Part shown: piece after piece, positions 5,333 to 61,475 of the stretch
Numbering within the stretch: the stretch's first letter is position 1
Layout: each line of letters begins with the position of its first letter
From: Candidatus Woesearchaeota archaeon
Lineage (GTDB): Archaea; Nanobdellota; Nanobdellia; Woesearchaeales; DSVV01
Assembly (NCBI GenBank): GCA_018303075.1
Contig: JAGVYW010000001.1
Coordinates: forward strand, 7,156 to 71,155
Direction of reading: 5' to 3'
DNA length: 64,000 nt
Translations under genes and position numbers: made by a program
The notes under the pieces: model-generated
Told to the model about the DNA's origin: nothing
Seen by the model: the letters and a program-made list of their open reading frames with translations, nothing else
Databases searched by the model: none

Positions 5333-5779
5333 ATGGTTACAAGAAAACGCGGAAAAATGTCAAGACATCGTGGATCACACACTCATGGTTATGGTGCAAT
5401 GAAAAAGCATCGAGGCAGTGGAAACAAAGGAGGAAAAGGAATGGGTGGTTCAGGAAAAAGAGCTGATTCAAAAAAACCTTCTATCTGGAAAAATAAAGAT
5501 TATTTTGGCAAGCATGGATTTGTTAATGCAACAACAAAAAAACAAAATACTATCAATATTCGTGATATTGAAGAAAAACTGGACAGATATGCAGCAGAAC
5601 AAAAAATAACTCTTGCAAATAATATTTATACAGTTGATCTATCATCATGGGGAATTGACAAGCTGTTAGGTACTGGAAAAGCTAAGCATTCTTATATGAT
5701 AACAGTTGCTGCAGCTTCACAGCAAGCAATTGAAAAAATAGAGGCTGCAAGCGGAAAAGTAATATTAATTAAAGTATAG
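5333..5779 (+). CDS. rpl15: 50S ribosomal protein L15 (uL15)
   Basis: The Gly/Lys-rich N-terminus RGSHTHGYGAMKKHRGSGNKGGKGMGG is typical of uL15. Confidence 0.85.
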   Translation: MVTRKRGKMSRHRGSHTHGYGAMKKHRGSGNKGGKGMGGSGKRADSKKPSIWKNKDYFGKHGFVNATTKKQNTINIRDIEEKLDRYAAEQKITLANNIYTVDLSSWGIDKLLGTGKAKHSYMITVAAASQQAIEKIEAASGKVILIKV

Positions 5780-5814
5780 TATTTGCTGAGTGAGCGAAGC
5801 GAACTCGCAAATAC
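5779..5814 (+). repeat. Stop-codon-proximal hairpin with conserved loop GAGCGAAGCGA (copy 1 of 3)
   Basis: The sequence is GTATTTGC-tgagtGAGCGAAGCGAactc-GCAAATAC. It begins on the last base of the L15 stop codon. The loop contains the stable GCGAAGC mini-hairpin. Confidence 0.6.
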
Positions 5815-5866
5815 CTAAGAAGAATAAATTTATAAACTAATAATTGTTAGATTTAAATAAGGGGTA

Positions 5867-7297
5867 TTGTTCATGTCTTTATGGAAAAACTTAATCTATA
5901 ATCTGCCTGAAGTTGCAGGGCCAACACAGCGAAAACTAGGTTTTAAAGAAAAATTAAAATGGACCATGCTGATTCTTGTTCTGTTTTTCGTGCTTGGTGC
6001 AGTCCCTCTTTTTGGTTTAGGTGAAAATGCATTAGCTCAGTTTGAATTCTTATCATTAATCCTTGGAGCTTCTTTTGGAAGCATCATATCATTAGGTATT
6101 GGTCCAATTGTTACTGCATCTATTGTTATGCAATTGTTGAATGGTTCTGGATTAATAAGTTTCAATCTTCAAGAAGCAGAAGGAAAAAAAAGATTCCAAG
6201 GTACTCAAAAATTATTGGCAATTGTCTTTATCGTGTTTGAAGCAGCTGTCTATGTATATATGGGTGGGTTAGCACCAAATGCTGCATTGCAAGGTACAAG
6301 CGCTTATTTTTCTCTCCAACTGATGCTTGTCTTTCAATTAATAATCGGAGGATTTTTGATCTTGTTCATGGATGAGATTGTTAGCAGATGGGGTTTTGGT
6401 TCAGGATTATCATTGTTTATCGCAGCAGGAGTATCAAAATCATTATTCGTTCAAGCATTCTCATGGTTGCCAGCTATAGGTGGAACAACTGAAATAAGTT
6501 ATGCAACTGGAGCTGTGCCTCAATTATTCCAAGCATTTGCTGCAGGAGATTTGCAGACAGCTGTGCTAGCAATATCAGCATTATTATCAACATTTGCAAT
6601 CTTTGCAATTGCAGTATATTCTCAAGCAATGAAAGTTGAGATTCCATTATCCTTTGGAAGAGTTAGAGGGCATGGAATAAGATGGCCATTGAGCTTTATT
6701 TACACCAGTAATATTCCTGTTATCTTGATATCTGCATTATTAGCAAATCTACAATTATGGGCAAGATTACTGCAAAACTGGGGCAGACCTCTTTTAGGAA
6801 CTGTTGATGCATCAGGCAATGCTGTTTCAGGTATTGTTGCATGGTTATCTATTCCTGGAGGAAGGAGAGGTTTGCTTGGTATGATTATCACTCAAGGTGG
6901 ATTTGGTATTGGTTTTAAACCATATATACAAGCAATAGTTTATCTTCTCGTATTAGTGATAGGGTCTATTGTGTTTTCATATTTCTGGGTGCAAACTTCA
7001 GGAATGGATGCAAGATCACAGGCAAAGCAATTATTGAACTCAGGATTGCAAATCCCAGGATTTAGAAGAGATGAAAGAATTCTTGAAAGAATCTTAAGCA
7101 GGTACATTACACCATTAACAATTATGGGTGGATTAACTATTGGATTTTTAGCTGGATTTGCTGATCTGCTTGGGTCATTAGTTAATGGAACATCATTGTT
7201 ATTAACAGTTATGATCATCTATAGATTATATGAAGATATTGCAAAACAACATATGATGGATATGCATCCTATGCTTAGAAAAGTTATGGGAGGATAA
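5867..7297 (+). CDS. secY: preprotein translocase subunit SecY
   Basis: The ORF encodes a 476-aa protein with about 10 transmembrane segments. It follows L15 as in the conserved operon and shows SecY-family motifs. Confidence 0.9.
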   Translation: MFMSLWKNLIYNLPEVAGPTQRKLGFKEKLKWTMLILVLFFVLGAVPLFGLGENALAQFEFLSLILGASFGSIISLGIGPIVTASIVMQLLNGSGLISFNLQEAEGKKRFQGTQKLLAIVFIVFEAAVYVYMGGLAPNAALQGTSAYFSLQLMLVFQLIIGGFLILFMDEIVSRWGFGSGLSLFIAAGVSKSLFVQAFSWLPAIGGTTEISYATGAVPQLFQAFAAGDLQTAVLAISALLSTFAIFAIAVYSQAMKVEIPLSFGRVRGHGIRWPLSFIYTSNIPVILISALLANLQLWARLLQNWGRPLLGTVDASGNAVSGIVAWLSIPGGRRGLLGMIITQGGFGIGFKPYIQAIVYLLVLVIGSIVFSYFWVQTSGMDARSQAKQLLNSGLQIPGFRRDERILERILSRYITPLTIMGGLTIGFLAGFADLLGSLVNGTSLLLTVMIIYRLYEDIAKQHMMDMHPMLRKVMGG

Positions 7298-7332
7298 AAC
7301 ATTCATTCGCTTTGCTCATGATATGTTTTATC
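7293..7332 (+). repeat. Stop-codon-proximal hairpin with conserved loop (copy 2; loop core in opposite orientation)
   Basis: The sequence is GATAAAACAT-tcATTCGCTTTGCTCATgat-ATGTTTTATC, with a perfect 10-bp stem that spans the secY TAA stop. The loop core ATTCGCTTYGCTCAT is the reverse complement of the loop of the other two copies. Confidence 0.6.
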
Positions 7333-7335
7333 AAT

Positions 7336-7467
7336 TTTAAACAAGACGAATTCCACTGGTCTATTTGACAGGTGGTGGAATTCGTAAGCGTCAAGAACCA
7401 CCCTCAATAGACATTTACAGGAACTTCGTTCATGCCACTGGTCTATTGACCAGTGGTTCTTGACAGT
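7336..7467. repeat. MITE-like repeated element, copy A (about 130 bp)
   Basis: About 65 nt at the 5' end are near-identical to positions 14475-14540, and the 3' ends also match (catgccactggt...tgacag). The element has an internal hairpin acgaattccac/gtggaattcgt and imperfect terminal inverted repeats caagacgaattccactggtc / gaccagtggttcttgac. Confidence 0.5.
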
Positions 7468-7512
7468 TAGTGCGATTGAATGTAATGAAATCGCACTAAG
7501 TTTCGCTTTCAA

Positions 7513-8352
7513 TTGGCGAAAGAATTGGAGGAGTTTTTTATGTTAGATTCAATATTTAATCCAATTTTATTTCCTGTCTTAAGATTACACCCTTTTTTAG
7601 CTATTGTAATCATTTCATTTGTTCTATCATTATTGATGACAATTGCATACAAATATCTTACTAACCAAAGTCTTATGAAATCTATGAAAGATGAGATTAA
7701 GGAACTGCAGAATGAAACCAAAACATTGAGAGATAACCCAAAACAGATGATGACTGTACAGAAAAAGGCAATGGAAACAAATATGAAATATTTTATGCAG
7801 TCATTAAAACCAACATTGATCACATTCATTCCAATAATTCTGATATTCTCATGGCTTAATGCACATATGGGATACTTGCCTATCGTAAAAGATACTGAGT
7901 TTAGCGTTGCATTTGAATTTGATGACAGCGGCGGGGTTGTGCAATATTTAGGCGGAGATAGTACTTATAATAATTCAAACAGCAGTTTAAATACTTCTTT
8001 ACTTTTATTAAACAGTTATAATCAAACAGTATTAGATAAAAGCGCAAAATTTGTCTATAAGAGTGGAGTTGGAGATTATACTCTGCGTTACAAGTATAAA
8101 GACAAAGAATACAAACAGCAAGTAATAATAGTTGAGAATATTAAAGATAGAACTTATGCTTTACCTGAACAAACTGTTGGTAAAGAAGGTTTGTCGAGCA
8201 TAAAAACAAGCAATGAAGAGATTAAGCCGCACAAGGATATATTCATTCTTGGTTGGATTCCTTGGATTAAGACTTTTGGTTGGTTGGGAAGTTATGTGCT
8301 GCTGTCAATTGTGTTTAGTTTGATTCTTAGAAAAGTGATGAATGTATATTAA
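7513..8352 (+). CDS. DUF106/EMC3-family membrane protein (archaeal YidC/Oxa1-like insertase homolog) with an Asn/Ser-rich C-terminal extension
   Basis: The protein has a TM1, coiled-coil, TM2-TM3 architecture (KKAMETNMKYFMQSLKPTLITFIPIILIFSWL). A DUF106 gene near secY is typical in archaea; the M. jannaschii homolog Mj0480 sits in the same neighbourhood. An alternative start lies at 7540. Confidence 0.55.
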   Translation: MAKELEEFFMLDSIFNPILFPVLRLHPFLAIVIISFVLSLLMTIAYKYLTNQSLMKSMKDEIKELQNETKTLRDNPKQMMTVQKKAMETNMKYFMQSLKPTLITFIPIILIFSWLNAHMGYLPIVKDTEFSVAFEFDDSGGVVQYLGGDSTYNNSNSSLNTSLLLLNSYNQTVLDKSAKFVYKSGVGDYTLRYKYKDKEYKQQVIIVENIKDRTYALPEQTVGKEGLSSIKTSNEEIKPHKDIFILGWIPWIKTFGWLGSYVLLSIVFSLILRKVMNVY

Positions 8353-8400
8353 TTTTTTCCAAACAGAGTTTGGAAAAAATTAATCTAGTTGGAATTCTGT

Positions 8401-8847
8401 CTATATCAATATATTATATCTTTCTTTTATTGTATTTAATATTAAGATTGTTTCTGTTCTTTCAACAAATTCATAGGTTTGGATCTTTTTTAGAAATATA
8501 TCTAAAGCTTTTCTTGTTTTGAATTTCGCTATTACAATAGAATCAAAATCTCCAATTATATCATATACTGCAGAAACATGCTGATCTATGGCTATCTTTT
8601 TTTCAACTTCAAATAATTTACCCTTTGAAACTCTGATCTTAATGATTATATTCACATCATATCCTAACTTTTCATAATCAATATGCGCTATGTATTCTTT
8701 GATTATTTTTTCTTTTTCTAATTGTTTCATCCTCTTCATTATTGTAACTACTGAATATCCAATTTGTTTGGCTATCTCTCTTAATGAAAGCCTAGCATTT
8801 CCCATCAATACATTCAATATCTTTTTATCAATCTCGTCTATCATCAT
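8401..8847 (-). CDS. lrp: Lrp/AsnC-family transcriptional regulator
   Basis: An N-terminal HTH (ILNVLMGNARLSLREIAKQIGYSVVTIMKRMKQLE) is followed by a C-terminal RAM domain. The gene is transcribed divergently from glnA. Confidence 0.8.
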   Translation of the reverse strand: MMIDEIDKKILNVLMGNARLSLREIAKQIGYSVVTIMKRMKQLEKEKIIKEYIAHIDYEKLGYDVNIIIKIRVSKGKLFEVEKKIAIDQHVSAVYDIIGDFDSIVIAKFKTRKALDIFLKKIQTYEFVERTETILILNTIKERYNILI

Positions 8848-9052
8848 CTTTTATTCCATTAACACTTGTTTATTTTTCTAATTATAATCTAATAAATACT
8901 TTATATTTATAAAGCTTTTTGTTATTGTGGTTAATAAATGTTAACTAAATCTTTAAATAACTTAATATAATGCTAACACTTACTATATGAATTGATAATC
9001 ATTATGTTAATATTAAATGTTAAGTGTGAATAATTAAATGGACTGTTGAAAC

Positions 9053-10375
9053 ATGGAAATTAAAGAGATATATGAGATAATAGCAAAAGAAAATGTTAGA
9101 TTTATAGAAATGGAGTTTACAGATATATTTGGCGTGTTAAAGTCAATAAATATACCTGTGGAATGCATGAAAGATGCAATTGAAAGAGGATTATGGTTTG
9201 ATGGTTCGTCAATAAAAGGTTTTACCAGGATTAAGGAAAGCGATATGTATCTTAAGCCGGATTTAGATACATTTGCAATTATTCCTGATGATAAAGAAGT
9301 AAAGACAGCTAGTTTTTTTTGTGATGTTTATACTTCTGATGATGAATTATTTGCAGGATCGCCACGTACTGTGCTAAAAAAAGTGATTGAAGAAGCAAAG
9401 AAGGAAGGTTATGTCTTTAAAGTAGGTCCAGAGGTTGAATTCTATTTTTTCAAAAAGACAGCAGATGGCAAGATTGTAATTCCTGATTATGATGATGGCA
9501 GTTATTTTGATAGTTCAACAGGTGATATAGGAAGTGAGATCAGAAAAGAAGTAATGCTGAAACTTAAAGCTTATGGAATACACTCAGAAAGAGCGCATCA
9601 TGAAGTTGGACATGGGCAGCATGAAATAGGTTTTAGGTATGATGTTGCATTAGTTACAGCAGAAAGAGTAATTACATTGAAAAAGATAATCAAAATAGTT
9701 GCGCATAAATACGGGTTAATTGCATCATTTATGCCAAAACCTTTGTTTAAAAAACCAGGTAGTGGTATGCATATTCATTTTAGTTTATTTGATCCAGATG
9801 GAAAGCCTTTGTTTTATAACGAAGAAGATAAATATAAATTATCACCATTAGCAAAAAATTTTATTGCAGGGCAATTATCTTACATAAAAGAAATGTCAGC
9901 AATATTAAATCCAACTGTGAACTCATACAAACGATTGGTTTCAGGATATGAAGCTCCTGTTTATATCTGTTGGGGAGGAAAAAACAGATCTGCTCTTATT
10001 AGAATTCCACATTATATGAAAGGAAAAGAAAGCTCTGTTAGAGCGGAGATACGTTGTCCTGATCCAAGCGCATCGCCTTATTTAGTATTTGCAGCTTTGC
10101 TTAAAGTTGGATTGGAGGGTATAAAGAAAAAGAAAAGTTTAATGCCTTCATATGAAGATAACATATTTGAACAATCAAAAGAAGAGCTTGAAAAAATTGG
10201 AATAGAGACTTTGCCAGAAAGCTTAAGTGATGCATTAAAGATTTTCAAGAAAAGCGACCTAATGAAAGAATTGTTAGGGAACAAACTTTTTGGAAATTAT
10301 CTATATGCAAAAGAAAAGGAATGCGAAGAATTCAGAATAGCTGTAACTGATTGGGAAGTTAATACTTATTTATAA
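9053..10375 (+). CDS. glnA: glutamine synthetase type I
   Basis: The 440-aa protein has GS N-terminal beta-grasp and catalytic domain motifs (for example GSGMHIHFSLF and the NPTVNSYKRL region). Confidence 0.9.
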   Translation: MEIKEIYEIIAKENVRFIEMEFTDIFGVLKSINIPVECMKDAIERGLWFDGSSIKGFTRIKESDMYLKPDLDTFAIIPDDKEVKTASFFCDVYTSDDELFAGSPRTVLKKVIEEAKKEGYVFKVGPEVEFYFFKKTADGKIVIPDYDDGSYFDSSTGDIGSEIRKEVMLKLKAYGIHSERAHHEVGHGQHEIGFRYDVALVTAERVITLKKIIKIVAHKYGLIASFMPKPLFKKPGSGMHIHFSLFDPDGKPLFYNEEDKYKLSPLAKNFIAGQLSYIKEMSAILNPTVNSYKRLVSGYEAPVYICWGGKNRSALIRIPHYMKGKESSVRAEIRCPDPSASPYLVFAALLKVGLEGIKKKKSLMPSYEDNIFEQSKEELEKIGIETLPESLSDALKIFKKSDLMKELLGNKLFGNYLYAKEKECEEFRIAVTDWEVNTYL

Positions 10376-10652
10376 TAGTAACAGCTGTTTTTTTTCTATT
10401 TCTTTCTTCTTTTCGTTCAGAAATGATTTGTCCTGTTTACTCCTGATTTTTTTGTTATTTCTCCAGCTAAACTTGAACCTAAATCTAATAATGTCAGATA
10501 TACTCGCGCTTCATTTCCAGCTAATCCTAGTTCACGTATTGGGATGTTTTCATCAACTCCGTCTTACACAAGCAGCATGAGAATGGTGATGTGTGGTATG
10601 AATTTTTTTTGAAGAAGGTTGAGAATGGGAAATTTGTTAAAGTTGATAATAG

Positions 10653-11873
10653 CTAGAATTCAAATAATTTCTTTTGTTTTTTTAGATTGTCCAGCAAAAT
10701 GCTCTGCTTTAATTGTAAACTGCAATCATAATTAAATCTCTTTTTGATAAATGCTAATGTATAATTTAACATTGTTTGTTTATCTTCGAATTCAATAGGT
10801 TGTGCTGCTACTGCTTTTCTTGTTGCTTCTCTTACAACCCAAACACCTAATGGGGCAATATATTCGTTTGGGTCAACAAAACGTAAAGTGAGTATGCTTG
10901 CTTGTTTTTTTGTTTGCTGCAACTTTTCAAGAATTGCTAATCTAGCAGCGTAATAGCCACCAACTGTTGAAGATGCATATTCTTTTCTTCCATAATAATC
11001 TTCATAGTCTGTTGCAAATGATGTTTTTTCTGAGATAATTGTTTCAAATAATTCATACTGCCATTCGTTTGGAAAGAATAAGATCAGATAATAATTTCCA
11101 AGATGCCCTCCAAAATATGCTTTGTAGCAATCAAGTTGGTTGTAATCTTTTATTTGTTTGATTAATGTTTTTCCAATTGTATCATCTGTTAAAGTTATTG
11201 ACCATCTTGTCGGCACTAATTTTCTTTGTGTTTTTACTCCGAGATTTCCTGTACTCACAATTTTTGTTAGATAATGCTCATCGAATCCAGCGGTGTAAAG
11301 CTCCTGCAATGCAGCTACTGCTTTTACATCTGTGTCAGAAACAATCTTATCAACTTTTGTTGGAACTTTGATATTTTCTGTAATTTGCGCTTTTCTTAAT
11401 TCAATATTACAGCCATGAGGAGCTTCTTCTCTGTTGAGTGTAAGGCTGAAGTTTGGTTTTTTTGATAAATTTATCTCTATATCCACTGGTTTTTGCGAAA
11501 GAGAAAGCTCTTGTGATAGCTCTAAGAATTTGTTGGTAGATGAATTATTAGACGGATTGTTTATTGATTTGATATTTGCTTTAAACTGTGCATTGACTAA
11601 CTGTGTTCTTAAATCAATTATTTTAGGAATTGAATAATTTTCTCTGCTCCAAAGCAAAGGCTCATCGTTTTGTCTGTATTCCTCTGTATTAAGAATGCCA
11701 ACATTTATGTTAGGATAACCAAATCTTCCAACAAAGATGTTAGGAGATGCTCCAAAGTAATCCTGCTTTGCTTTTTTGTTGAATTCCTCCTGTGATTGCA
11801 GCTTTATCTTCTTTGGATCTAATGCAGGAAAATGCAATGTTCTGCCTTTGTCTTTGATGTATGATATGTCCAT
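10653..11873 (-). CDS. conserved archaeal protein, possibly Nre-family (DNA-repair-associated)
   Basis: The start was chosen at MDISYIKDKG; the upstream ATG of the 489-aa frame would overlap the divergent DHH gene. The Nre assignment rests on recollection of the family (motif PNIFVGRFGYPNINVG) and is tentative. Confidence 0.35.
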   Translation of the reverse strand: MDISYIKDKGRTLHFPALDPKKIKLQSQEEFNKKAKQDYFGASPNIFVGRFGYPNINVGILNTEEYRQNDEPLLWSRENYSIPKIIDLRTQLVNAQFKANIKSINNPSNNSSTNKFLELSQELSLSQKPVDIEINLSKKPNFSLTLNREEAPHGCNIELRKAQITENIKVPTKVDKIVSDTDVKAVAALQELYTAGFDEHYLTKIVSTGNLGVKTQRKLVPTRWSITLTDDTIGKTLIKQIKDYNQLDCYKAYFGGHLGNYYLILFFPNEWQYELFETIISEKTSFATDYEDYYGRKEYASSTVGGYYAARLAILEKLQQTKKQASILTLRFVDPNEYIAPLGVWVVREATRKAVAAQPIEFEDKQTMLNYTLAFIKKRFNYDCSLQLKQSILLDNLKKQKKLFEF

Positions 11874-11970
11874 GAAATAAAGAAAGTTTTTTTGGATTAA
11901 ATAGTTATTGAAAACAGTGGTGTGCCAGAAAACAATTAAACATATAAATGACTCTTTGTTTTTCAGATTC

Positions 11971-13017
11971 ATGCCAAGTTTACAAGAAGATATTAGTTTT
12001 ATCCGCAAAGAGCTGGAAACTAGCAAAAAACCATTGTTTCTATTTGATGATGATCCAGATGGGTTAACATCTTTTTTGCTGCTATACAGAAAAATACAGC
12101 GTGGAAAAGGGATATTTATCAAAAGCAGCCCGAATATTGAAAAAAAATATCTTAAACAGGTTCAAGAATATGGTCCGGACAAAATCTTTATCTTAGATAT
12201 GCCTATTGTTGAACAAGAGTTCATTGATGGAGCATTACAGTCAGGGGTACAAAAAATATTATGGATTGATCATCATGAACCTCAGAAAAATACAGGTGTT
12301 TATTATTTGAATCCTAGAAATTATATTGATGCTGATAATAGACCGACGAATTATTGGGCATATCTAATCGTACAGCAGGATCAATGGATTGCTATAGTTG
12401 GATGCTTATCTGATTGGTTTCTTCCAGAGTTTGCTGCAGAATTCTCAAGCAAATATCCTGAGATGCTGCCAAGCAATATCACAAAAGTTGACGAAGCATT
12501 GTTTACTACAAAAATAGGTGGTTTGTCCCGTATTTTTTCTTTTATACTTAAAGGAAAGTCAGATGACGCTAAGAAATGCATAAAAATTCTTACAAGATTA
12601 GAGCATTTTGATGAAGTATTACATCAAACAACTGCTCAAGGCAAGTTTGTATATCAAAAATTTGAGGCAATTAATAAGGAATATCTAGAAACATTGGATA
12701 ATACAAAAAATGCTCAGATTGTTGGCAATCTTTTGCTGTACAAATATAGCGAGATGAAAACAAGTTTTACTTCTGATCTGTCTAATGAACTACTATTTAA
12801 GAATCCTGGCAAAGCCATTCTAATCTGCAGAGAGAAATCTGGAGAAATGAAATGCAGCATGCGCGGAGCAAATTATGATCTTCCAACAATAATCCATAAA
12901 TCCCTTGAAGGACTGCAAGGATATGGCGGAGGACATACACATGCATGTGGTGTTTGTGTCAAGCTGAGGGATTGGGATGTTTTTTTGGAGAGGGTTAAAA
13001 AAGAAATCGAATCATAA
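11971..13017 (+). CDS. DHH-DHHA1 family phosphoesterase (RecJ/NrnA-like)
   Basis: The protein has DHH motifs LFLFDDDPDGLTSF and IDHHEP and the C-terminal DHHA1 GGGH motif (GGGHTHACG). The start is placed at MPSLQ; an alternative ATG lies at 11908. Confidence 0.6.
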   Translation: MPSLQEDISFIRKELETSKKPLFLFDDDPDGLTSFLLLYRKIQRGKGIFIKSSPNIEKKYLKQVQEYGPDKIFILDMPIVEQEFIDGALQSGVQKILWIDHHEPQKNTGVYYLNPRNYIDADNRPTNYWAYLIVQQDQWIAIVGCLSDWFLPEFAAEFSSKYPEMLPSNITKVDEALFTTKIGGLSRIFSFILKGKSDDAKKCIKILTRLEHFDEVLHQTTAQGKFVYQKFEAINKEYLETLDNTKNAQIVGNLLLYKYSEMKTSFTSDLSNELLFKNPGKAILICREKSGEMKCSMRGANYDLPTIIHKSLEGLQGYGGGHTHACGVCVKLRDWDVFLERVKKEIES

Positions 13018-13060
13018 AATGAATCGACTATAAAAAATACTTTCTTATTTTAAGTAATAA

Positions 13061-13231
13061 ATGATAATCTATAATCCACATAATGGACAGTTCCTTAATG
13101 AGAGAATTAAAAAAGCAGATGAGTTGTTTAATCAAATCCCCACAAAATATTGTTTTATTACTGGATCTTTTCTCTATAAAGAAAAATACAATGATATAGA
13201 TATCTTTTTAATATCTAGAACTTTTCTATGA
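13061..13231 (+). pseudogene. minimal nucleotidyltransferase (MNT) fragment
   Basis: This 56-aa frame MIIYNPHNGQFLNERIKKADELFNQIPTKYCFITGSFLYKEKYNDIDIFLIS carries the GS...D.D nucleotidyltransferase motif. It is too short for an intact MNT. A following ORF at 13228-13419 is in another frame. Confidence 0.25.
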
Positions 13232-13459
13232 GCTGTGTTTCTAAGAACATGCTTCCTAAAAAGCAATTAAAGGTTACTCTTTCAGATTATTGGCATGTTA
13301 TTAATGAGGGTATTCCAACTTTATTAAACCAAAAAAGTAAATATCATAAAGATGTTCGTTTTCTTATACTCTATACTGAATACTTCAAAACTGGAGAGGG
13401 TGTAAAATTTCCGATTTAAAAGCCAAACATTAATAAATGAACGATATTCTACTATCCCT

Positions 13460-14332
13460 ATGAAGGGTGAAGTTTTTTTTAATCATGAGAAGTTAAAAAT
13501 AATCTGCGAAGATGTACTTTCAACAGATAAAATTCCTAAAAATAGCGTTGATTTAATAGTTACATCTCCTCCTTATAATGTTGATATAAAATATAATTCT
13601 CATAATGACAAAATAAATTATGAAAAATATTTAGAATTTAGTCATAAATGGTTATCCAGATGTTTTGAATGGTTAAAAGATGATGGAAGATTATGTCTAA
13701 ATATTCTCTTAGATAAAAATAAAGATGGTCAGCAGAGTGTTGGTGCAGATTTTACAACTATTGCAAAAAAAATAGGTTATAAGTATCATTCTACAATTAT
13801 CTGGAATGAAGGAAATATTTCAAGAAGAACTGCTTGGGGTTCTTGGCTAAGTGCATCTGCTCCTTATGTAATTGCACCTGTAGAACTAATCCTAATTTTA
13901 TATAAGCAAGATTGGAAAAAGAAAGAGAAGAAAGAGTCAGATATAACACGACAAGAATTTATGGATTGGACTAATGGGTTATGGACTTTTCAAGGGCAAA
14001 GTAAAAAAGGAGCCGGAGGTCATCCTGCACCGTTCCCGATTGAGTTACCTAGAAGATGTATTAAATTATTTAGCTTTGTCGGAGATGTTGTATTAGATCC
14101 TTTTATGGGAAGCGGCTCGACATTAATTGCTGCCGCCAACAATAATAGAAAATCAATAGGAATTGATGTCGATAAAGAATATTGTGCGATAGCAAAAAAA
14201 AGATTAATTGCTGAAGCCAATATTTTTGAAAAGAAATTGCATGAAATGAAAGTCGAGAAAGAAAAACCCATCACTAGAAAAAGAACGGATTCCAATCCTA
14301 CTCAGAAATTGCTCGATGTTACTGTCAATTAA
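13460..14332 (+). CDS. DNA methyltransferase, beta-class (N4-cytosine or N6-adenine)
   Basis: Motif IV (VTSPPYNV) precedes motif I (LDPFMGSGST), which is the beta-class permuted order. SPPY is typical of N4C/N6A methyltransferases. Confidence 0.8.
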   Translation: MKGEVFFNHEKLKIICEDVLSTDKIPKNSVDLIVTSPPYNVDIKYNSHNDKINYEKYLEFSHKWLSRCFEWLKDDGRLCLNILLDKNKDGQQSVGADFTTIAKKIGYKYHSTIIWNEGNISRRTAWGSWLSASAPYVIAPVELILILYKQDWKKKEKKESDITRQEFMDWTNGLWTFQGQSKKGAGGHPAPFPIELPRRCIKLFSFVGDVVLDPFMGSGSTLIAAANNNRKSIGIDVDKEYCAIAKKRLIAEANIFEKKLHEMKVEKEKPITRKRTDSNPTQKLLDVTVN

Positions 14333-14355
14333 ACAAACAATAAGGTATGACAAAA

Positions 14356-14821
14356 ATGGCAAAAACTAAGGAAGAAATGTCGCAAGCTGATTTGATTATG
14401 GAATATTATAAGAAACATCCTAAAAGAGAGATACCTCATCCTGAAATTGTTGACTGGGTTGTTGATGAGTTTAAACAAGACGAATTCCACTTGTCTATTG
14501 ACAGGTGGTGGAATTCGTAAGCGTCAAGAACCACCTTAGGTGTTATCGATAAGCATGCCACTGGTTTGAAAAGTATTTAGAGATCCTGACAGAGCAATTA
14601 GAAAATTATCACAAGAAGGACAACTCATCAAAATAAATAAAGGAGTTTACAAATATGACCCTGATTTCGTACATAATAGAGAACTTGAAGATTTTACACC
14701 TGCACAAAAAGAAGAAATTTTTAAGAGGGATAATTACAGATGTGTAATTTGCGGTAGAGGAAAAGCAGTGTTTGTTCTTGATGTATCGCTTCGCTATTTT
14801 GATGGAACGACGAGCCACTAA
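14356..14821 (+). pseudogene. HNH/Zn-ribbon endonuclease-like gene disrupted by a MITE-like insertion (possible degraded restriction partner of the methyltransferase)
   Basis: The 5' part (MAKTKEEMSQADLIMEYYKKHPKREIPHPEIVDWVVDEFK...) terminates inside the repeat. The 3' part runs in a different frame from 14570 to 14821 with no start codon. It encodes a winged-helix-like segment and a C-x2-C motif (RDNYRCVICGRGK). Confidence 0.4.
14475..14590. repeat. MITE-like repeated element, copy B (inside the HNH-like pseudogene)
   Basis: This is the same element as 7336-7467: the 5' ~65 nt are about 95% identical and the 3' terminal motif is shared. Its length is not a multiple of 3, consistent with the frameshift between the gene halves. 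Confidence 0.5.
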
Positions 14822-41666: not shown

Positions 41667-42527
41667 TTGAGGTCGCTTAAAATGTCACAAATTGTGCAAA
41701 TAAAATCCCTTGTACTCGCAGCAGTTACAGATAAGATTGGCTATGTAAAGGCTCGAAAAGAGGCCGATAAATTAGCTTCAGAACATGGCTTGAGAGTAGC
41801 TGATACGCCGATGGCAATACAAGCTATGGCTAATCATCCTGAAGTTCGTGAAGCAATAAGGCCAGGATGGATAGACACAATCACTGGCGAATATCATGGC
41901 CAACGAGATGGCGATAGTTCTTATGAAACATGGCATTCCGTAGGTTCTTTGGCAACTGCAAAAGGATTGGAAAAAGTATTTTCCAAAGTTGGAGAATATG
42001 CATTTATGCAGATTGCTGATGACGAATGGATTGCTGTCGGAAAAGGCAATTACAACGGTCAGGATGTTGCAAGAATCCATCTTGATGATGTTAAGAAAGG
42101 CAGTGTGCCTGCAGCAGGAACTCCTTATACTGTTTTTATACGATTGGGCAAGGACAAAGCCAACATCAATGACAGAGGTCAATTAACGTATGATACTTTC
42201 ATGAGTGATGACAGAGTGCTTATGATTGCAGGTTCTCCTGATAACAGGGAAGCACTGGCTAAAATGCTCTTTGGCAGAAAAGAATATGGCGGAGAAGGCT
42301 GGAGCAATATTGGAAGCTATCATAGAATAAATGAAGTTGGCTTTGACGCTCAAGCTAAGGGGCGCCTGGTGTACCTCAACAACAATAGTGTTGGCCTCGT
42401 TGGCGACGGCAACATCAACAACCTTTATGGGCGTTTCGTCGTGGTAGGCGCAGTTGCGCGCGAAAAATCAGCTCCTCTGAGCATCGTGCAGCCAACTCTC
42501 GAGCAGACACTGGCAGTTATCAAATAA
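41667..42527 (+). CDS. hypothetical protein encoded by a GC-rich, compositionally atypical ORF (probably foreign)
   Basis: GC content is visibly higher than in the flanks (for example ggcgcctggtgtacctcaac...gtggtaggcgcagttgcgcgcg). No recognisable family was found. The likely start is MSQIVQ at 41682. Confidence 0.4.
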   Translation: MRSLKMSQIVQIKSLVLAAVTDKIGYVKARKEADKLASEHGLRVADTPMAIQAMANHPEVREAIRPGWIDTITGEYHGQRDGDSSYETWHSVGSLATAKGLEKVFSKVGEYAFMQIADDEWIAVGKGNYNGQDVARIHLDDVKKGSVPAAGTPYTVFIRLGKDKANINDRGQLTYDTFMSDDRVLMIAGSPDNREALAKMLFGRKEYGGEGWSNIGSYHRINEVGFDAQAKGRLVYLNNNSVGLVGDGNINNLYGRFVVVGAVAREKSAPLSIVQPTLEQTLAVIK

Positions 42528-43405
42528 TCCAGACCTGAACAAAGAAGGCATGTTAAAAGCCGTATCTCAGCTGTATAAACATTAAATTACCGATATTTTT
42601 TTATATTCTTCTTGTTATTTCTATTTTTGTCCCAGTTGCTTCGTCAACTTTGATGAAGTTATGAAGTAGCTTGGAACTACACGCCATTTCACTATGGCAA
42701 CATCGCTGTTATAAAATACAACCACGACAGCTAACGTCTGAAGTGGTGGTGGCTTTCAGGAAAGTGAAATGGCTACTATAGTGGCGCCTGGTGTACCTCA
42801 ACAACAATAATAATGGCCTCGTGTCATCTTTAAGTTGCTTTGCTCCTTTTCGAGCCATGATTCCGTTACGTATGGAAATCTTGGTTGCTGCAAGAAGGTC
42901 CTCGCTCACAGTATTGGTCAATTGTGATGCTCTCAAATCAAGTGCCCTGATGGCTTGCTCATTGATTGTACTCTTGACTTTGATTCCTGCAACCTGAGGA
43001 TAATTCTTTTTGATGAAGTTCTCTCCAAGCTTTATTCCTTGCTTGAATTTCTTTTTTGAATCGAGAAAGATTGCTGCAAGAAAGAGGTTCTTTGGATGAA
43101 AATAGTCATAGACTCTAATATTATATTCTTTGCTTTAATAACAGATTCTGTAAAAAGAAGATTAATCCTACAATATAAAGGGAAATTTTTATTTCCATCA
43201 TATGAAATAGACAAACATAAGCAATTATTGTGTCTTTATTGCATGTGCTTTAGCATTTCAAGAAAGCGTAATTTGGTCAGATGATAAAAAATTAAAAGAA
43301 CAGCAGAAAATAACTATTCTCAACACAGAAGAGATTATGGATATTATTTTCTAATTCTTTTTTTTAAACAAAAACTTTATATAACACCTCAGCATATATT
43401 TTATC

Positions 43406-43834: not shown

Positions 43835-46183
43835 CTATTTTTCAGAATTGTCTTCTTTGTTATCACTTTCTTCCTTATTACTATCTTCTTGCTTAGGTTC
43901 ATTTTCAGGTTCTCCTTCTTGATCATCTCTTTCCTGATTTTCTGGTTTTTTATCTTCTTCTCTTTCCATTTCTCTGTTATCTCTTTCTCTTCCATCACCA
44001 ATATGTTCTCGATCCTGTTCAAGTTGTTCTATCTCTTTTTGCAATCGTTGTACATCAGTAAAATCTGGAGCTTCTGGACTTGCTTGTTTTGCATCATGGA
44101 GCAACTGTTTTATCTCTTCAGGACTTAAGCTTTCAAAAGAACGGTCACCAATATTGATTTTTCCTTCTTTCTGCATCCTTCTGAGATCCTCCATGAAATT
44201 GAACTGTTGCTGTCCATGCTGTTGCTGACCGTAGTTTTCTCCAATAGGGAATCCTTGTAGCATTGTTGGAATCTCAACTTTTCTTATGACGCCGCCAATA
44301 GCTTCTTCCCTCTTATTTTCATACATCTCTTGATACTTTGCTTGTCCAGTTCCTTCTGTCATCTTTTGCGTGATTATTTCTTTACATGCATCCATTCCAA
44401 TAAATTCGCCATCTTTTATGCATTCTTGGGGAGTTCTTCCTTGACCACCTGGACTTCCACTGCCAAATTCAGGGAAATCACCTTCACCAAATTCTCCTCC
44501 AGAAAATCCTTGACCTTGTCCTTCTCCTTGCTGATATTTATCTTTCATAATTGTTTCACATGCTTCTTGACCTATAAATTCTCCATCCTTCATACATTCT
44601 TGGGGAGTTCTCCCTTGACCTTCACCACCTTCACTACCCATGCCCTGTCCTTGACCTTTAAACTTTTCTTCGCATGCTTCTCGACCAATAAATTTATCAC
44701 CATCAAAACATTCTTTTGGTATTTTTCCTGCATCACGCATTTTTCCAATGCATTCTTTTTCACCAATTGGCTTTCCACCTTCAATGCATTCTTCAGGGAT
44801 ATTTCCTGTTGCCATCATCTTTTCTTCGCATGCTTCCCTGCCTATGAAATCGTCACCATCAAAACATTCTTTTGGTATTTTCCCTGCTTCTTTCATCTTT
44901 TCCAGACATGCGTTTTCTCCAATAGGTCTTCCTTTTTCAACACATTCTTCTGGAATATCACCTGAATCCATTATCTTCTGTTCGCATTCCTCTCGCCCAA
45001 TAAACTTGCCATTTTCCATGCATTGCTTTGGCATTTTCCCAGAATCAACCATTTTCTTGGTGCATTGTTTCTCTCCGATAAACTTGCCATCTGCAACACA
45101 TTCTTCAGGCATTTCACCAGATTCAATCATCTTTTTTGTGCATTGTTTCTCTCCGATAAACTTGCCATCTTTCATACATTCTTCAGGAGGTTCGCCGTGT
45201 TTTTCAATCATTATCTTCTTGCAATCTTCTCTTGTTTTGACACCTGCATCTTTGCATTCTTGTGGTGCAAACTTGTCAAACATCATATCTTCTGACTCAT
45301 CCATAATCTTTCTAAATTCTTCTCGCATAAATTCTGGTAATAGTTCTTCACCTGCATATTCTCCTTCAGAATCAAGCTCTTGGCAGGCTTCTTCGTTTTC
45401 TTCAAACTCACAAAGTATAATCAATTTTTTTTCTTTTTCACAATATGTCTTCATCTTCTGCACAGGAATATCTTGGCATTGACAATTCTGTATATCTTGG
45501 ACGCATGATCTCAATACTTCTACAAATTTATCTGTTGCTTGCCCCTGCATCTTTCTTATATCTGTTTCAATATATTCTTTTAACCAAGCTGGAGCTGTAT
45601 CAGGATTGCATTTTTCTTCTTGCTCCATGAGTGTATAATCGATGCTTGCCAATTGTTCACAGAGGGAGACAATTTTGCCTGCTAATTCTCCTGCAATCTT
45701 ATTTTTTTCTACCTGGCTGGAAAGAGAATCATATAACTCATGGATCTTTTCTTCATCAGGCAATTGTTCTTGCAATTGTTTAAGAATGTCTTGTATCTCT
45801 TTGCTGTCAGCTTCAACCTGTCTTTTTAATTCTGGAGAGATCTCATCTTCAATCAATGCTGAGATATTCTTTGCATTTACTAATGCAACTGTCAAGGCAG
45901 CTGTTTTGTTCTCGGCAGCCATCTGCTGCGCTTCAGCTGCTTTTTCCTTGACAATCTCTAATGCATATTCCACCTTTTCATCTCCATCTTTTGTTGCCAG
46001 TTTTACCTCTTCAACAACCTCATCAATAAAATAAAATGGACTATCTGGAGTAATTCCTGCTTTTGGCGCTTCGATGACAACTTCCTCTTCCTCTACTGCA
46101 GCAGCAAGAATGCCGAGCATAAAAATACTGATTAATGATAGAAATAATAAACTTACTATCTGTCTTACTCTTTTTTTTTGCAT
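43835..46183 (-). CDS. large secreted Cys-rich protein with at least eight tandem ~24-aa repeats (DGKFIGEKQCTKKM..SG.MPEEC)
   Basis: An N-terminal signal peptide precedes an acidic coiled region and then tandem repeats, which are also visible at the DNA level around 44430-45300. The C-terminus is an acidic Glu/Asp/Lys tail. Confidence 0.6.
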   Translation of the reverse strand: MQKKRVRQIVSLLFLSLISIFMLGILAAAVEEEEVVIEAPKAGITPDSPFYFIDEVVEEVKLATKDGDEKVEYALEIVKEKAAEAQQMAAENKTAALTVALVNAKNISALIEDEISPELKRQVEADSKEIQDILKQLQEQLPDEEKIHELYDSLSSQVEKNKIAGELAGKIVSLCEQLASIDYTLMEQEEKCNPDTAPAWLKEYIETDIRKMQGQATDKFVEVLRSCVQDIQNCQCQDIPVQKMKTYCEKEKKLIILCEFEENEEACQELDSEGEYAGEELLPEFMREEFRKIMDESEDMMFDKFAPQECKDAGVKTREDCKKIMIEKHGEPPEECMKDGKFIGEKQCTKKMIESGEMPEECVADGKFIGEKQCTKKMVDSGKMPKQCMENGKFIGREECEQKIMDSGDIPEECVEKGRPIGENACLEKMKEAGKIPKECFDGDDFIGREACEEKMMATGNIPEECIEGGKPIGEKECIGKMRDAGKIPKECFDGDKFIGREACEEKFKGQGQGMGSEGGEGQGRTPQECMKDGEFIGQEACETIMKDKYQQGEGQGQGFSGGEFGEGDFPEFGSGSPGGQGRTPQECIKDGEFIGMDACKEIITQKMTEGTGQAKYQEMYENKREEAIGGVIRKVEIPTMLQGFPIGENYGQQQHGQQQFNFMEDLRRMQKEGKINIGDRSFESLSPEEIKQLLHDAKQASPEAPDFTDVQRLQKEIEQLEQDREHIGDGRERDNREMEREEDKKPENQERDDQEGEPENEPKQEDSNKEESDNKEDNSEK

Positions 46184-46229: not shown

Positions 46230-47429
46230 TTATTCTTTTAGGCTTTGCTCTTTTAATATTGTATCCTCTTTCTTAAGCTTATACTGTTGATACCATGTAT
46301 AGCAATCATGATCGTACATTTTTTCATACCACTTGCATTGCAGAGCAATACATTGATGATTCTCAAGCTTTTCATCCTCTTTACAAATAATCTTTTCGCA
46401 TTGATGGTTCTTAACAATCTCATCAAATTCACATTCAAGTTTCTGACAGCTATGGTTGATTGTAATCTCATCATCCATACAATTCAGACTTTCGCAGGAA
46501 TGATCTTTTATGATCTCATTATCTAAACATTCAAATTTCTGGCAGCTATTATTGTTGCAGATCTCATCATTGCCACATTCATCATCCCCGCAGCATTGAT
46601 ATTTCTTACATTGATGGGATTCAAGAGGATCAATATATTCGCATGTATTGCAATCTAATTTTTGGCAGATGCTGTTTTCACAGATCTCATCAGCCATGCA
46701 TTCATTGTTTTTTTCGCACAATGGAAGTTCACTGCATTCTTTAGCAATTGAAAATCCTGATTTTTCACATTGGTAGTAGACCATAAATTCCTTGATCTTT
46801 TTGTCAGTATCCCATTTTAATGTAAATCTATTGCCATCATTCTTTCGTTTCATTGTGATTGTGAAATTTTCAAATCCTTCGCTTGTAACAACAGGAGTGT
46901 GCCGTATCACTCTATTTGTATCTAGCTTTGCATTGTAATTCAGCGAATAAGGATTAGCAAAACGGAACTCTTTATTTTTGCTGATCGAAAGGTCATTGAT
47001 AAGAAATTTGCCTACAAATGTGTCATTTCTCATATAACAGGATTCAACAAATGATTGATTCAGCATTCTGCAGCTAAAACTAAATATTGGGCATTTGGCA
47101 GTATACCTTTTCTTTCCAATCTTGATGTAATATGAGGTTGGTTCACCTGCAACAAAGATGCCATCTTGTGATTCATATGTATAATAGGTTACTTTTTTCT
47201 TACCTTCTGTTTTCTCTCTGCTACTCCATGCTCCTTTGACAGGAAAATAATTATCTTCTGCTTTAACTAGCCTAGCTGTAACATCATTTCGTATCAATGA
47301 ATCATCAATCTTCAGCGAGCCATCGTCCTTGCATTCGATTTTTGTTGCTGAAACAAATGAGAGGGAAAGAAGGCTGCAAAAGACTAACACCAAAATGATT
47401 CTATTAGAACGTCTGTTCAATGATGCCAT
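46230..47429 (-). CDS. secreted protein with C-terminal Cys-rich repeats (C.x.EI...H.C..L.C modules)
   Basis: A signal peptide is followed by a beta-rich domain and then about seven short Cys repeats (CQKLDC, CQKFEC, CESLNC, CQKLEC...). Confidence 0.55.
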   Translation of the reverse strand: MASLNRRSNRIILVLVFCSLLSLSFVSATKIECKDDGSLKIDDSLIRNDVTARLVKAEDNYFPVKGAWSSREKTEGKKKVTYYTYESQDGIFVAGEPTSYYIKIGKKRYTAKCPIFSFSCRMLNQSFVESCYMRNDTFVGKFLINDLSISKNKEFRFANPYSLNYNAKLDTNRVIRHTPVVTSEGFENFTITMKRKNDGNRFTLKWDTDKKIKEFMVYYQCEKSGFSIAKECSELPLCEKNNECMADEICENSICQKLDCNTCEYIDPLESHQCKKYQCCGDDECGNDEICNNNSCQKFECLDNEIIKDHSCESLNCMDDEITINHSCQKLECEFDEIVKNHQCEKIICKEDEKLENHQCIALQCKWYEKMYDHDCYTWYQQYKLKKEDTILKEQSLKE

Positions 47430-47694: not shown

Positions 47695-48219
47695 ATGCCA
47701 ACAAAAAAAGCATCTATCCATATCATTCTTACAGGTGGAACAATTGATTCGTATTGGAATGGCACCATTGATACTGCTACGCCATTAAAAGAATCTTCTA
47801 TTCCTCTATTTATCTAATCGTTAAAACTCTATGATAAGGTAATGTTCACAACTATTTGTATGAAAGACAGTAGACAATTAGTACAATCTGACAGAAAAAA
47901 GATTTTGATTGCAACTGAACAAAGTCCATGCAAAAAGATAATTATTACGCATGGAACATATACAATACCCGATACAGCTAAGTTTCTGCAGACTAATTTA
48001 CAGCGAAAAGACCAAACAATTATCTTGACAGGTTCAATGATTCCATTAACTGGATTTTCTCCATCAGATGCTCCTTTTAATTTAGGTTTTTCATTTGCAA
48101 AACTGCCAGAATTATCTGCTGGAGTTTACATCTGCATGAACGGAAGAATCTTCACAGCAGATGAAACTATTAAGCTCTTATTTGAAGGAAGGTTTGCGTC
48201 TGTGTTTGGGGAAAAGTGA
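47695..48219 (+). pseudogene. L-asparaginase N-terminal-domain gene carrying an in-frame TAA stop (codon 41)
   Basis: Asparaginase motifs occur in order and with correct spacing: ILTGGTIDS, IIITHGTYT (the HGTDT equivalent), and ILTGSMIPLTGFSPSDAPFNLGFSFA. A single TAA at 47815-47817 interrupts an otherwise continuous frame. No C-terminal asparaginase domain is present. Confidence 0.5.
48127..48219 (+). repeat. ~90-bp direct repeat, left copy (3' end of the asparaginase-like gene)
   Basis: About 90% identical to 48933-49025. The two copies flank the MNT-HEPN cassette. Confidence 0.7.
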
Positions 48220-48932: not shown

Positions 48933-49025
48933 TACATCTGCATGAACGGAAGAATCTTCACAGCAGATGAAACTATCAAGATCCTATCAGAAGGAAGGTT
49001 TGCGTCTGTGTTTGGAGAGAGATAA
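48933..49025 (+). repeat. ~90-bp direct repeat, right copy: an orphan duplicate of the asparaginase-like gene's 3' end
   Basis: It encodes YICMNGRIFTADETIKILSEGRFASVFGER*, compared with ...YICMNGRIFTADETIKLLFEGRFASVFGEK* in the left copy. Confidence 0.7.
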
Positions 49026-55879: not shown

Positions 55880-56411
55880 CTCTTTATACCAAAAATCTTT
55901 ATAAAATAATTTACTGCTGTAAATTATTTTTTAATTATAAAACTACGATTTTGTTATTTTACATCTTAACTATACTACATTTCTTGCTGCTTTCTTGGAA
56001 AGCATTGTTATTCTTTCAACAAACAAGCCATGGATTGTATCATAACTCATATCATTGCAAGTATATTGTTCATCAAGCCTATACATCATAATCACCTCTG
56101 TTATTTTTTTCATATCTTCTATTGTAGGACTTAGTAAAATAATAAGACAAAGGGCTTTAGGGGTTGAATCGCCCTTGTCAAAGTCAAACAAAATAAGTAT
56201 TATAGTAGAATAAGTCCTTTATATACTTCACAGCTCCATGTCCAGTGACCAGTGCAGAGTGTTTATAGTGGCCAGTGGACATCAGTTTCACAGTGCTCAG
56301 CTATTATTCGCTCAATTGAAATCGCTCAATTTAAAAAATAGACTTTTCCAAATTAAATCAGAACAACATTTATAAATCTTCAATTACTCCAGCAATTAAG
56401 GTGAGAATATT

Positions 56412-61276: not shown

Positions 61277-61395
61277 AATTGTTATACAGAATTATTACTA
61301 TAATAATTTATTGATTTGCTGATTCTTTTCACAGTTACATCCTGTCCTAGTTAATCTCTGTCGTAGTTAACATCTGTCCGGATTACAGAGCTTTA

Positions 61396-61432
61396 GTATT
61401 TTCTGAATGAGCGAAGCGAATTCAGAAAATAC
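61396..61432 (+). repeat. Hairpin with conserved loop GAGCGAAGCGA (copy 3)
   Basis: The sequence is GTATTTTCTGAAT-GAGCGAAGCGA-ATTCAGAAAATAC, with a perfect 13-bp stem. The loop is identical to the copy at 5779-5814, and the 5' stem is related to it (GTATTTNCTGA). Confidence 0.6.
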
Positions 61433-61475
61433 TATTAGCATAAACAATATAAACTAAAACTAATTTAAATAGTTT

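Follow-up and report, generated by a model that had tools for sequence, protein, structure and literature searches.

What is the short, hairpin-forming sequence that occurs twice in this 64,000-nt stretch of a Candidatus Woesearchaeota contig (hereafter the window), once behind secY and once inside a gene for an HNH nuclease that adjoins a DNA methyltransferase, and what did it do to the gene that it interrupts? A preliminary description had likened it to MITEs, the miniature transposable elements with inverted repeats, and had tentatively held one of its copies responsible for the loss of the nuclease. Here, we propose that both sequences are probably copies of a palindrome-associated transposable element (PATE), a non-autonomous element of the IS200/IS605 type. 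This kind of element is already known and is newly seen in Woesearchaeota. The window has a G+C content of 32% and is archaeal by its profile-search matches, which include a Sec61-type SecY with a plug domain, an EMC3/TMCO1-like insertase and an Nre protein. The proteins of the window (MBS3136816-MBS3136823) match those of a Candidatus Woesearchaeota metagenome-assembled genome exactly, and contigs near-identical to the window are present in several groundwater metagenomes.

The two-copy repeat is real. From TTTAAA onward, copy A (7336-7402) and copy B (14470-14535) are identical at 66/67 nt (97%), which bears out the common 5' module of about 65 nt that had been recognised in the preliminary description. 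A blastn-short search of the window returned no copies beyond these two, 26- and 32-nt probes of the common module each match copies A and B alone, and 100 shuffles of the window gave no probe matches. Copy A (7342..7465, plus strand) represents a variant subfamily and is complete at 124 nt. It lies in the spacer between secY and the EMC3-like gene, directly 3' of a TTTAAA hexamer (7336..7341, plus strand), and runs on the same strand as both of these genes. Its identity to the main family is about 85%, with a differing 36-nt middle; the copy is identical in a syntenic contig (L027; related contigs and loci carry the prefix L) and is 99.6% identical over the portion present in another (L028). 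As had been suggested, the element folds: copy A forms two long hairpins, with an RNA folding energy of -54.4 kcal/mol (z = -6.2) and a z-score of -8.0 as DNA. Hairpin 1 (7346..7385, plus strand) consists of the previously noted 11-bp outer stem ACGAATTCCAC/GTGGAATTCGT and a further apical 5-bp stem, and pair counts give its helix as paired in 100% of cells. Hairpin 2 (7390..7464, plus strand) has the outer stem GTCAAGAACCAC/GTGGTTCTTGAC around the variable middle and the apical palindrome CCACTGGTCTATTGACCAGTGG. Three small hairpins flank copy A in the same spacer, at 7290-7333 (GGATAAAACAT..ATGTTTTATC), 7467-7499 (TTAGTGCGATT..AATCGCACTAA) and 7501-7521 (TTTCGC..GCGAAA); the second of these has no exact repeats in the other loci.

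Copy B comprises the first 92 of the 113 nt of the main-family element (14476..14567, plus strand), as defined by alignment to L004, L027, L028 and L030. The TTTAAA that precedes it (14470..14475, plus strand) is host coding sequence and forms the Phe-Lys codons of EFKKRTGK. This copy has an intact hairpin 1 but has lost the right arm of hairpin 2 as well as the element's right end, and its fold retains hairpin 1 only. Both copies reported earlier thus exist, with the correction that the right end of copy B had been set too far downstream at 14590: the sequence near that position (TCCTGACAG) is HNH coding sequence (RDPDR) that is also found in element-free homologues, and the true end is at 14567.

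An exact-word scan of 185,579 species genomes and of metagenome contigs, using a 22-nt word from the hairpin junction, places the two copies in a dispersed family. The species genomes gave one match, between the Sm-like and L37e genes of another Woesearchaeota metagenome-assembled genome (MAG; L001), and the groundwater metagenome contigs gave 22 copies on 21 loci, nearly all from a single metagenome. After strain duplicates are dropped, the family occupies at least 23 distinct sites. The proposal of a mobile miniature element present in multiple copies, for which a BLAST-type search beyond the window had been recommended, is therefore upheld by the many copies that the scan found. Eighteen copies are exactly 113 nt long, and since 11 of them are identical, six are one position off the consensus and one is four positions off, the family appears to have spread recently. 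Length variants range from 85 to 124 nt and comprise copy A (124 nt), a divergent copy in L008 (116 nt) and the copy in L001 (85 nt), which lacks exactly the middle segment, a segment bounded by the short direct repeat CCAC. No copies were found in viral contigs scanned with junction, left-end and right-end words, nor in plasmid and phage collections searched by blastn. At one locus (L012) a single copy is flanked on the left as in L018 and on the right as in L007, reflecting either recombination between copies or an assembly chimera.

The aligned copies have sharp common ends, running from CAAGACGAATTCCAC, directly after TTTAAA, to GGTTCTTGACA, with unrelated flanks that diverge immediately beyond. 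TTTAAA stands directly before the initial CAAGACG in 19/20 copies with a located left end, and the one other copy has TTTAAAA. Right flanks vary between copies, so the fixed oligonucleotide is confined to the left side. Seven full-length, element-free nuclease homologues read [FYWL]-[KN]-K-[RQ]-[TM]-G across the insertion point of copy B, a motif that is regained only with CAAG, after TTT AAA, as the start of the element; the hexamer is therefore host sequence. Alleles with and without the element give the same boundaries. An intact ortholog of the nuclease gene in L024 (84% identical) reads GAATTTAAT followed directly by AAGAGA where L004 and the window hold the insert, and differs from L004 by exactly 113 nt. 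At a locus upstream of a tnpA gene, an empty site in L034 (GTTTAAA followed directly by ATAGGG) again differs by exactly 113 nt from the filled alleles in L038-L041. Across these two empty/filled comparisons the target duplication amounts to at most 1 nt (an A). Two further ideas about the hexamer were set aside. TTTAAA is not specially avoided in the genome, being only mildly low (0.77-0.86 of the Markov expectation), like other palindromes containing TAA, and the notion that the targets are archaeal TATA boxes is unsupported as a general rule, with left flanks lacking a consensus like that of the transcription factor B recognition element (BRE) and many downstream genes having Shine-Dalgarno leaders.

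Excision of 113 nt in silico restores the open reading frame (ORF) in 3/3 mid-gene insertions, which interrupt the HNH nuclease, an S-adenosylmethionine (SAM)-dependent methyltransferase (GxGxG...FFK joined to EKGF at the insertion junction) and a Zn-ribbon protein; a fourth genic copy lies six codons before a stop. The restoration that had been anticipated for the nuclease gene is obtained with the full-length allele in L004 and not with the window allele, which has a 31-nt deletion and can therefore no longer be repaired by excision. Clean restoration, together with the sense orientation of all genic copies, would also be expected of an intron, either of the bulge-helix-bulge type or self-splicing, that is removed from transcripts and leaves the interrupted genes functional. 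We regard this as highly improbable. The archaeal bulge-helix-bulge comprises two 3-nt bulges with a 4-bp helix between them and spans both junctions, whereas the folds obtained here are two independent hairpins with no such motif across the junctions. Near its 3' end the element offers nothing complementary to UUUAAA, the 5' exon end; the sequences 3' of the copies are unrelated to one another, 113 nt is far below the size of group I or group II introns, and there was no match to an Rfam ribozyme. Moreover, the copies are mostly intergenic, and copy B has no 3' junction and resides in a gene that lacks its catalytic half.

A classification has to account for the dispersal in multiple copies, the exact boundaries, the TTTAAA target without duplication and the presence/absence alleles, as well as for the anatomy of the hairpins. 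The element is ordered as 4 nt, hairpin 1, a 4-nt linker, hairpin 2 and 1 nt. Its ends are complementary over 5 nt only (CAAGA/TCTTG), to which the imperfect terminal inverted repeats of the preliminary description shrink, and they are not inverted repeats. The hairpin tips, CCACTTGTCTATTGACAGGTGG and CCACTGGTTTATTGACCAGTGG, are instead 22-nt direct repeats of each other (18/22 identical, 82%) at consensus positions 12-33 and 83-104, 11 and 9 nt from the respective ends. Single-strand DNA folds of the element have z-scores of -7 to -13. Among seven variants, 97% of cells pair, with compensatory changes at two of the pairs; covariation from so few variants supports the hairpins without being decisive.

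Classical prokaryotic MITEs are similarly small, present in multiple copies, mostly intergenic and mobilised in trans. They are deletion derivatives of insertion sequences (ISs) with DDE transposases and possess terminal inverted repeats and usually target duplications, whereas the Woesearchaeota element has neither. The label MITE-like thus fits in the sense of a small, mobile, multi-copy element, and does not extend to a classical MITE. The repetitive extragenic palindromes (REPs) and REP doublets (REPINs) of bacteria are believed to owe their spread to a domesticated, TnpA-like Y1 enzyme, the REP-associated tyrosine transposase (RAYT). They resemble the present element as short extragenic hairpin repeats, and one Woesearchaeota copy adjoins a tnpA-like gene. 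However, REPs are headed by GTAG and their doublets are inverted, unlike a two-hairpin, direct-orientation unit with defined ends and a fixed target.

A closer counterpart is provided by PATEs, which are transposase-less derivatives of IS605-type elements with no inverted terminal repeats, similar near-terminal palindromes, no target duplication and a targeting oligonucleotide of 4-6 nt, and for which repeat-mediated core deletions have been described (PMC3119063). The lack of inverted repeats, similar near-terminal palindromes, unduplicated target, targeting oligonucleotide and core deletion observed here lead us to classify the element as a PATE. The PATE HqIRS46 of Haloquadratum walsbyi has in common with it a transposase-less size and the lack of terminal inverted repeats and target duplication, and carries a 22-bp direct repeat in its near-terminal palindromes, comparable to the two 22-nt tips of the Woesearchaeota element (PMC3119063). 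Further common features are a short conserved flanking oligonucleotide on the 5' side only, 'homogeneous' families of >90% identity, insertion into other IS605-type elements, and shorter variants resembling repeat-mediated core deletions, here represented by L001 and its CCAC repeat (PMC3119063). The Haloquadratum PATEs differ in having a haloarchaeal host and no sequence similarity to the present element, which belongs to a DPANN host and targets the hexamer TTTAAA. No related IS605-type parent turned up for the Woesearchaeota element, and its strong sense-strand bias relative to neighbouring genes may be another difference. With IS200/IS605 elements more broadly (IS608, ISDra2 and Sulfolobus IS605), the element has in common an insertion 3' of an unduplicated AT-rich oligonucleotide, sub-terminal imperfect hairpins and a lack of inverted repeats, and differs in that it has no gene for TnpA or TnpB. 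In Sulfolobus islandicus, IS605 elements use 5'-TTTAA as their insertion target, a sequence that serves at the same time as the transposon-associated motif (TAM) of their TnpB, and this TTTAA(A) target matches that of the Woesearchaeota element (PMC11043419; bioRxiv 10.1101/2023.03.06.531077). Their right end is TTCAC, compared with TTGACA here.

Given these PATE features and the archaeal precedent for TTTAA, peel-and-paste transposition by a Y1 TnpA in trans is the likeliest mechanism. As to the enzyme, the single-stranded intermediate and the identity of the acting TnpA, we infer that the following course is the most likely. A Y1 (HUH) TnpA supplied in trans would bind, on the top strand, both of the related sub-terminal hairpins and make two cuts, one 3' of the flanking TTTAAA and the other 3' of the terminal TTGACA of the element. 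A single-stranded circle would be released and the donor resealed, and the circle would then be pasted 3' of another TTTAAA in single-stranded DNA, leaving the target unduplicated. Copy B would have entered the HNH nuclease gene in this way, at the Phe-Lys codons TTT AAA, with its right end lost afterwards in the window, and copy A would represent a complete variant in an intergenic spacer.

The element could alternatively be a mobile non-autonomous element moved by another enzyme, either a Y2 HUH transposase (IS91/ISCR/Helitron-like) or a recombinase of the IS110 or IS607 type, which we consider unlikely. Elements of the IS91/Helitron type produce no target duplication and have a fixed flanking oligonucleotide and a hairpin near the 3' end, as does the Woesearchaeota element; in addition, no cognate IS200/IS605 partner was found in the related loci or viral contigs. 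However, two similar sub-terminal palindromes in direct orientation are a signature of IS200/IS605 elements and PATEs, and not of IS91 (PMC3119063), and the TTTAA(A) target has its precedent in archaeal IS605 (PMC11043419). Furthermore, contigs that carry the element encode an IS200-family TnpA, and no Y2, IS110 or IS607 gene was seen, with the search for such genes being unsystematic.

Several results weigh against an assignment to the IS200/IS605 type, most of them from the search for a transposase partner. Using IS608 TnpA as a tblastn query (sequence verified against PDB 2a6m), one homologue was recovered, in L021, located 25 nt downstream of an element copy. This IS200-family TnpA, which is encoded on the element-bearing contigs L021 and L038-L041, scores 110 bits against NCBIfam NF033573 (cut-off 55) and 25 bits against the RAYT model (cut-off 80). 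It is 145 aa long, with HLH as its HUH motif and the Tyr in EQYIKNQ. Relatives fetched with their flanks place its gene in an IS200-type element roughly 0.65 kb in length that carries a CGCAGC..GCTGCG hairpin at either end (L021 1-660; L034; L035; L036 2300-2860; L038-L044), and neither its hairpins nor its ends bear any relation to those of the 113-nt element. In most samples the 113-nt element is nested at a TTTAAA between the left hairpin of the IS200-type element and the tnpA start, with L034 representing the empty allele. The TnpA of L021 and L038 is probably not the cognate enzyme. A REP/RAYT-like link between the element and the L021 TnpA was likewise rejected, as comparison of L034-L037 indicates that the gene has its own IS ends and that the element is merely inserted. 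In the short contig L043, a middle of the copy A type is found at the site upstream of the IS200 tnpA, which may reflect a second insertion, conversion or an assembly chimera.

No full-length element with the hairpins of the 113-nt element was found in the sequences searched, and no solitary left or right ends occur in about 300 kb of related loci or in the viral contigs; an 18-nt partial end match in L002 falls within a gene and probably reflects chance. Pfam assigns no transposase among 19 ORFs of the window, and ISDra2 TnpB (verified against PDB 8bf8) had no match in a tblastn search restricted to this single query sequence. Complementarity in the style of IS608 between the cleavage sites and the bases 5' of the hairpins could not be demonstrated; in the L001 variant, the bases that precede the right hairpin tip on its 5' side are different.

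The orientation of the insertions adds a further difficulty. Genic insertions are in sense orientation in 4/4 cases, and among the informative intergenic copies about 14/15 share the coding strand of the genes beside them, with the copy in L005 alone opposite. Four intergenic copies lie between divergent genes and none between convergent ones, and copies on the same contig have a common orientation in 3/3 cases. Most copies are located 13-110 nt upstream of a co-oriented start codon. For adjacent genes the bias is about 18 to 1, compared with 72 co-oriented versus 51 opposite genes at distances of >1.5 kb on the same contigs (23 insertion sites). The bias is therefore local to adjacent genes, and the simple lagging-strand rule of IS200/IS605 elements does not predict it: its sign fits insertion into the lagging-strand template combined with co-directional genes, whereas neither its strength nor its local character does. 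The bias might arise because antisense copies are selected against, because the non-template strand is targeted, or because the element has an RNA role that needs read-through transcription.

An RNA role would be central if the element were mainly a functional RNA module that is incidentally mobile, acting through mRNA-stabilising or processing hairpins or as an omega-RNA-like guide scaffold with the downstream flank as guide. This is consistent with the strong sense bias in and between genes relative to distant genes, with a T.G pair in hairpin 1 that becomes an A.C mismatch on the opposite strand, and with the location of the majority of copies shortly upstream of co-oriented start codons. 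However, neither copy type belongs to an Rfam family, including transposon-associated RNA motifs and ribozymes, the matches being far below threshold and to generic hairpins. Copies within ORFs break them, so the element is not under host control, and the near-identical copies and presence/absence alleles point to selfish spread. TnpB was not detected in the available sequence by single-sequence tblastn, and the bias could instead stem from counter-selection of antisense copies or from single-stranded non-template targeting. We consider a primary RNA function to be improbable. More tentatively, and with considerable doubt, we raise the possibility that the bias reflects something beyond ordinary transposition, namely transcription-coupled integration into the non-template strand (bubbles, R-loops) or an omega-RNA-like guide cassette. 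Such a cassette would be promoter-less and read through from host promoters, with the downstream flank as its guide, and might be retained via a TnpB-type nuclease acting at empty sites flanked by TTTAAA.

Returning to the PATE insertion in the window, the preliminary description had interpreted the interrupted gene and its neighbour as a type II restriction-modification pair whose nuclease was inactivated by the repeat. Both gene assignments stand. The upstream gene (13460..14332, plus strand) encodes an intact, 290-aa beta-class N6/N4 DNA methyltransferase (PF01555, 1.7e-50, 172 bits) with an N-terminal SPPY and a C-terminal FMGSGST motif, and matches a protein named site-specific DNA-methyltransferase in a Woesearchaeota MAG. 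The interrupted gene is an HNH nuclease pseudogene, with a similarity at the generic level of the HNH domain. Its 5' fragment (14347..14475, plus strand) holds codons 1-43 and ends in ...VVDEFK; in a tblastn alignment, residues 1-44 of the intact homologue P0001 correspond to 14347-14478. The 3' fragment (14570..14821, plus strand) is in a different reading frame and aligns to residues 48-113 of the homologue over 14570-14767, where homology ends. Residues 114-200, including the HNH catalytic core, have no counterpart in the window and are absent in all alleles. Intact homologues are 197-200 aa long, and in L023-L026 they start 15 nt after an N6_N4_Mtase gene, so that the adjacency of the two genes is kept. 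The related strains L004, L027, L028 and L030 carry the full 113-nt insert in the nuclease gene, and the deletion in the window allele takes 21 nt from the right end of the element together with 10 nt of gene sequence.

As read from these alignments, the nuclease bears three lesions, namely the insertion at codon 43, the 31-nt deletion and the loss of residues 114-200. The proposed pair is accordingly retained insofar as an intact methyltransferase adjoins a dead nuclease. The insertion is not the sole lesion, nor is it demonstrably the inactivating one.

The window contains several further repeats and candidate RNAs. A weaker related palindrome had been reported at 56230-56300; it has no significant similarity to the element and forms part of a different conserved stretch of about 140 nt, which is 82% identical between the window (56195-56332) and L006 (11345-11482) and starts just after a TTTATATA box. 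This stretch, for which Rfam gives no match at the gathering score, possibly encodes a small RNA. Another family of hairpin repeats (TAGTATTT..GAGCGAAGCGAA..AAATACTA), unrelated to the 113-nt element, is scattered over intergenic spacers in the window (5777-5840 and 61394-61457) and in L019 (~8430-8469), L006 (~4182), L013 (~6149) and L020 (~3530), with one copy between the L15 gene and secY. An RT-16 RNA (Rfam RF03019, 84 bits) at 42630-42781 adjoins a 43-nt repeat (42358-42400 and 42780-42822), one copy of which lies in the 3' end of an ORF at 41667-42527. The two repeat copies have four differences, three of which are adenines in the downstream copy, and by sequence this is the template/variable-repeat pattern of a diversity-generating retroelement; no ORF of the size of a reverse transcriptase is present within 42.5-43.4 kb of the window. 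A 782-aa protein encoded at 43835-46183 (minus strand) combines a DUF5667 N-terminus with many Cys-containing repeats of 26 aa (a DNA period of 78 nt), and a neighbouring ORF (46384-46705) has periodic repeats of 48 nt. Finally, an 86-nt direct repeat with 93% identity occurs at 48127-48212 and 48933-49018, 806 nt apart.

Taken as a PATE, the repeat documents an active, well-bounded miniature element of the IS200/IS605 type in a small-genome DPANN archaeon, and the locus that it interrupts in the window presents the step-wise decay of a restriction nuclease beside a surviving methyltransferase. Its exact ends, TTTAAA target and empty and filled alleles can aid the annotation of MAGs and help to avoid false gene calls and assembly breaks. 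The fixed target also predicts TTTAAA as the TAM of any TnpB-type nuclease that belongs to the same transposon lineage. Among the features of the element, the orientation bias alone might lead further; if mechanistic, it would bear on how single-strand transposons of Archaea find their targets.

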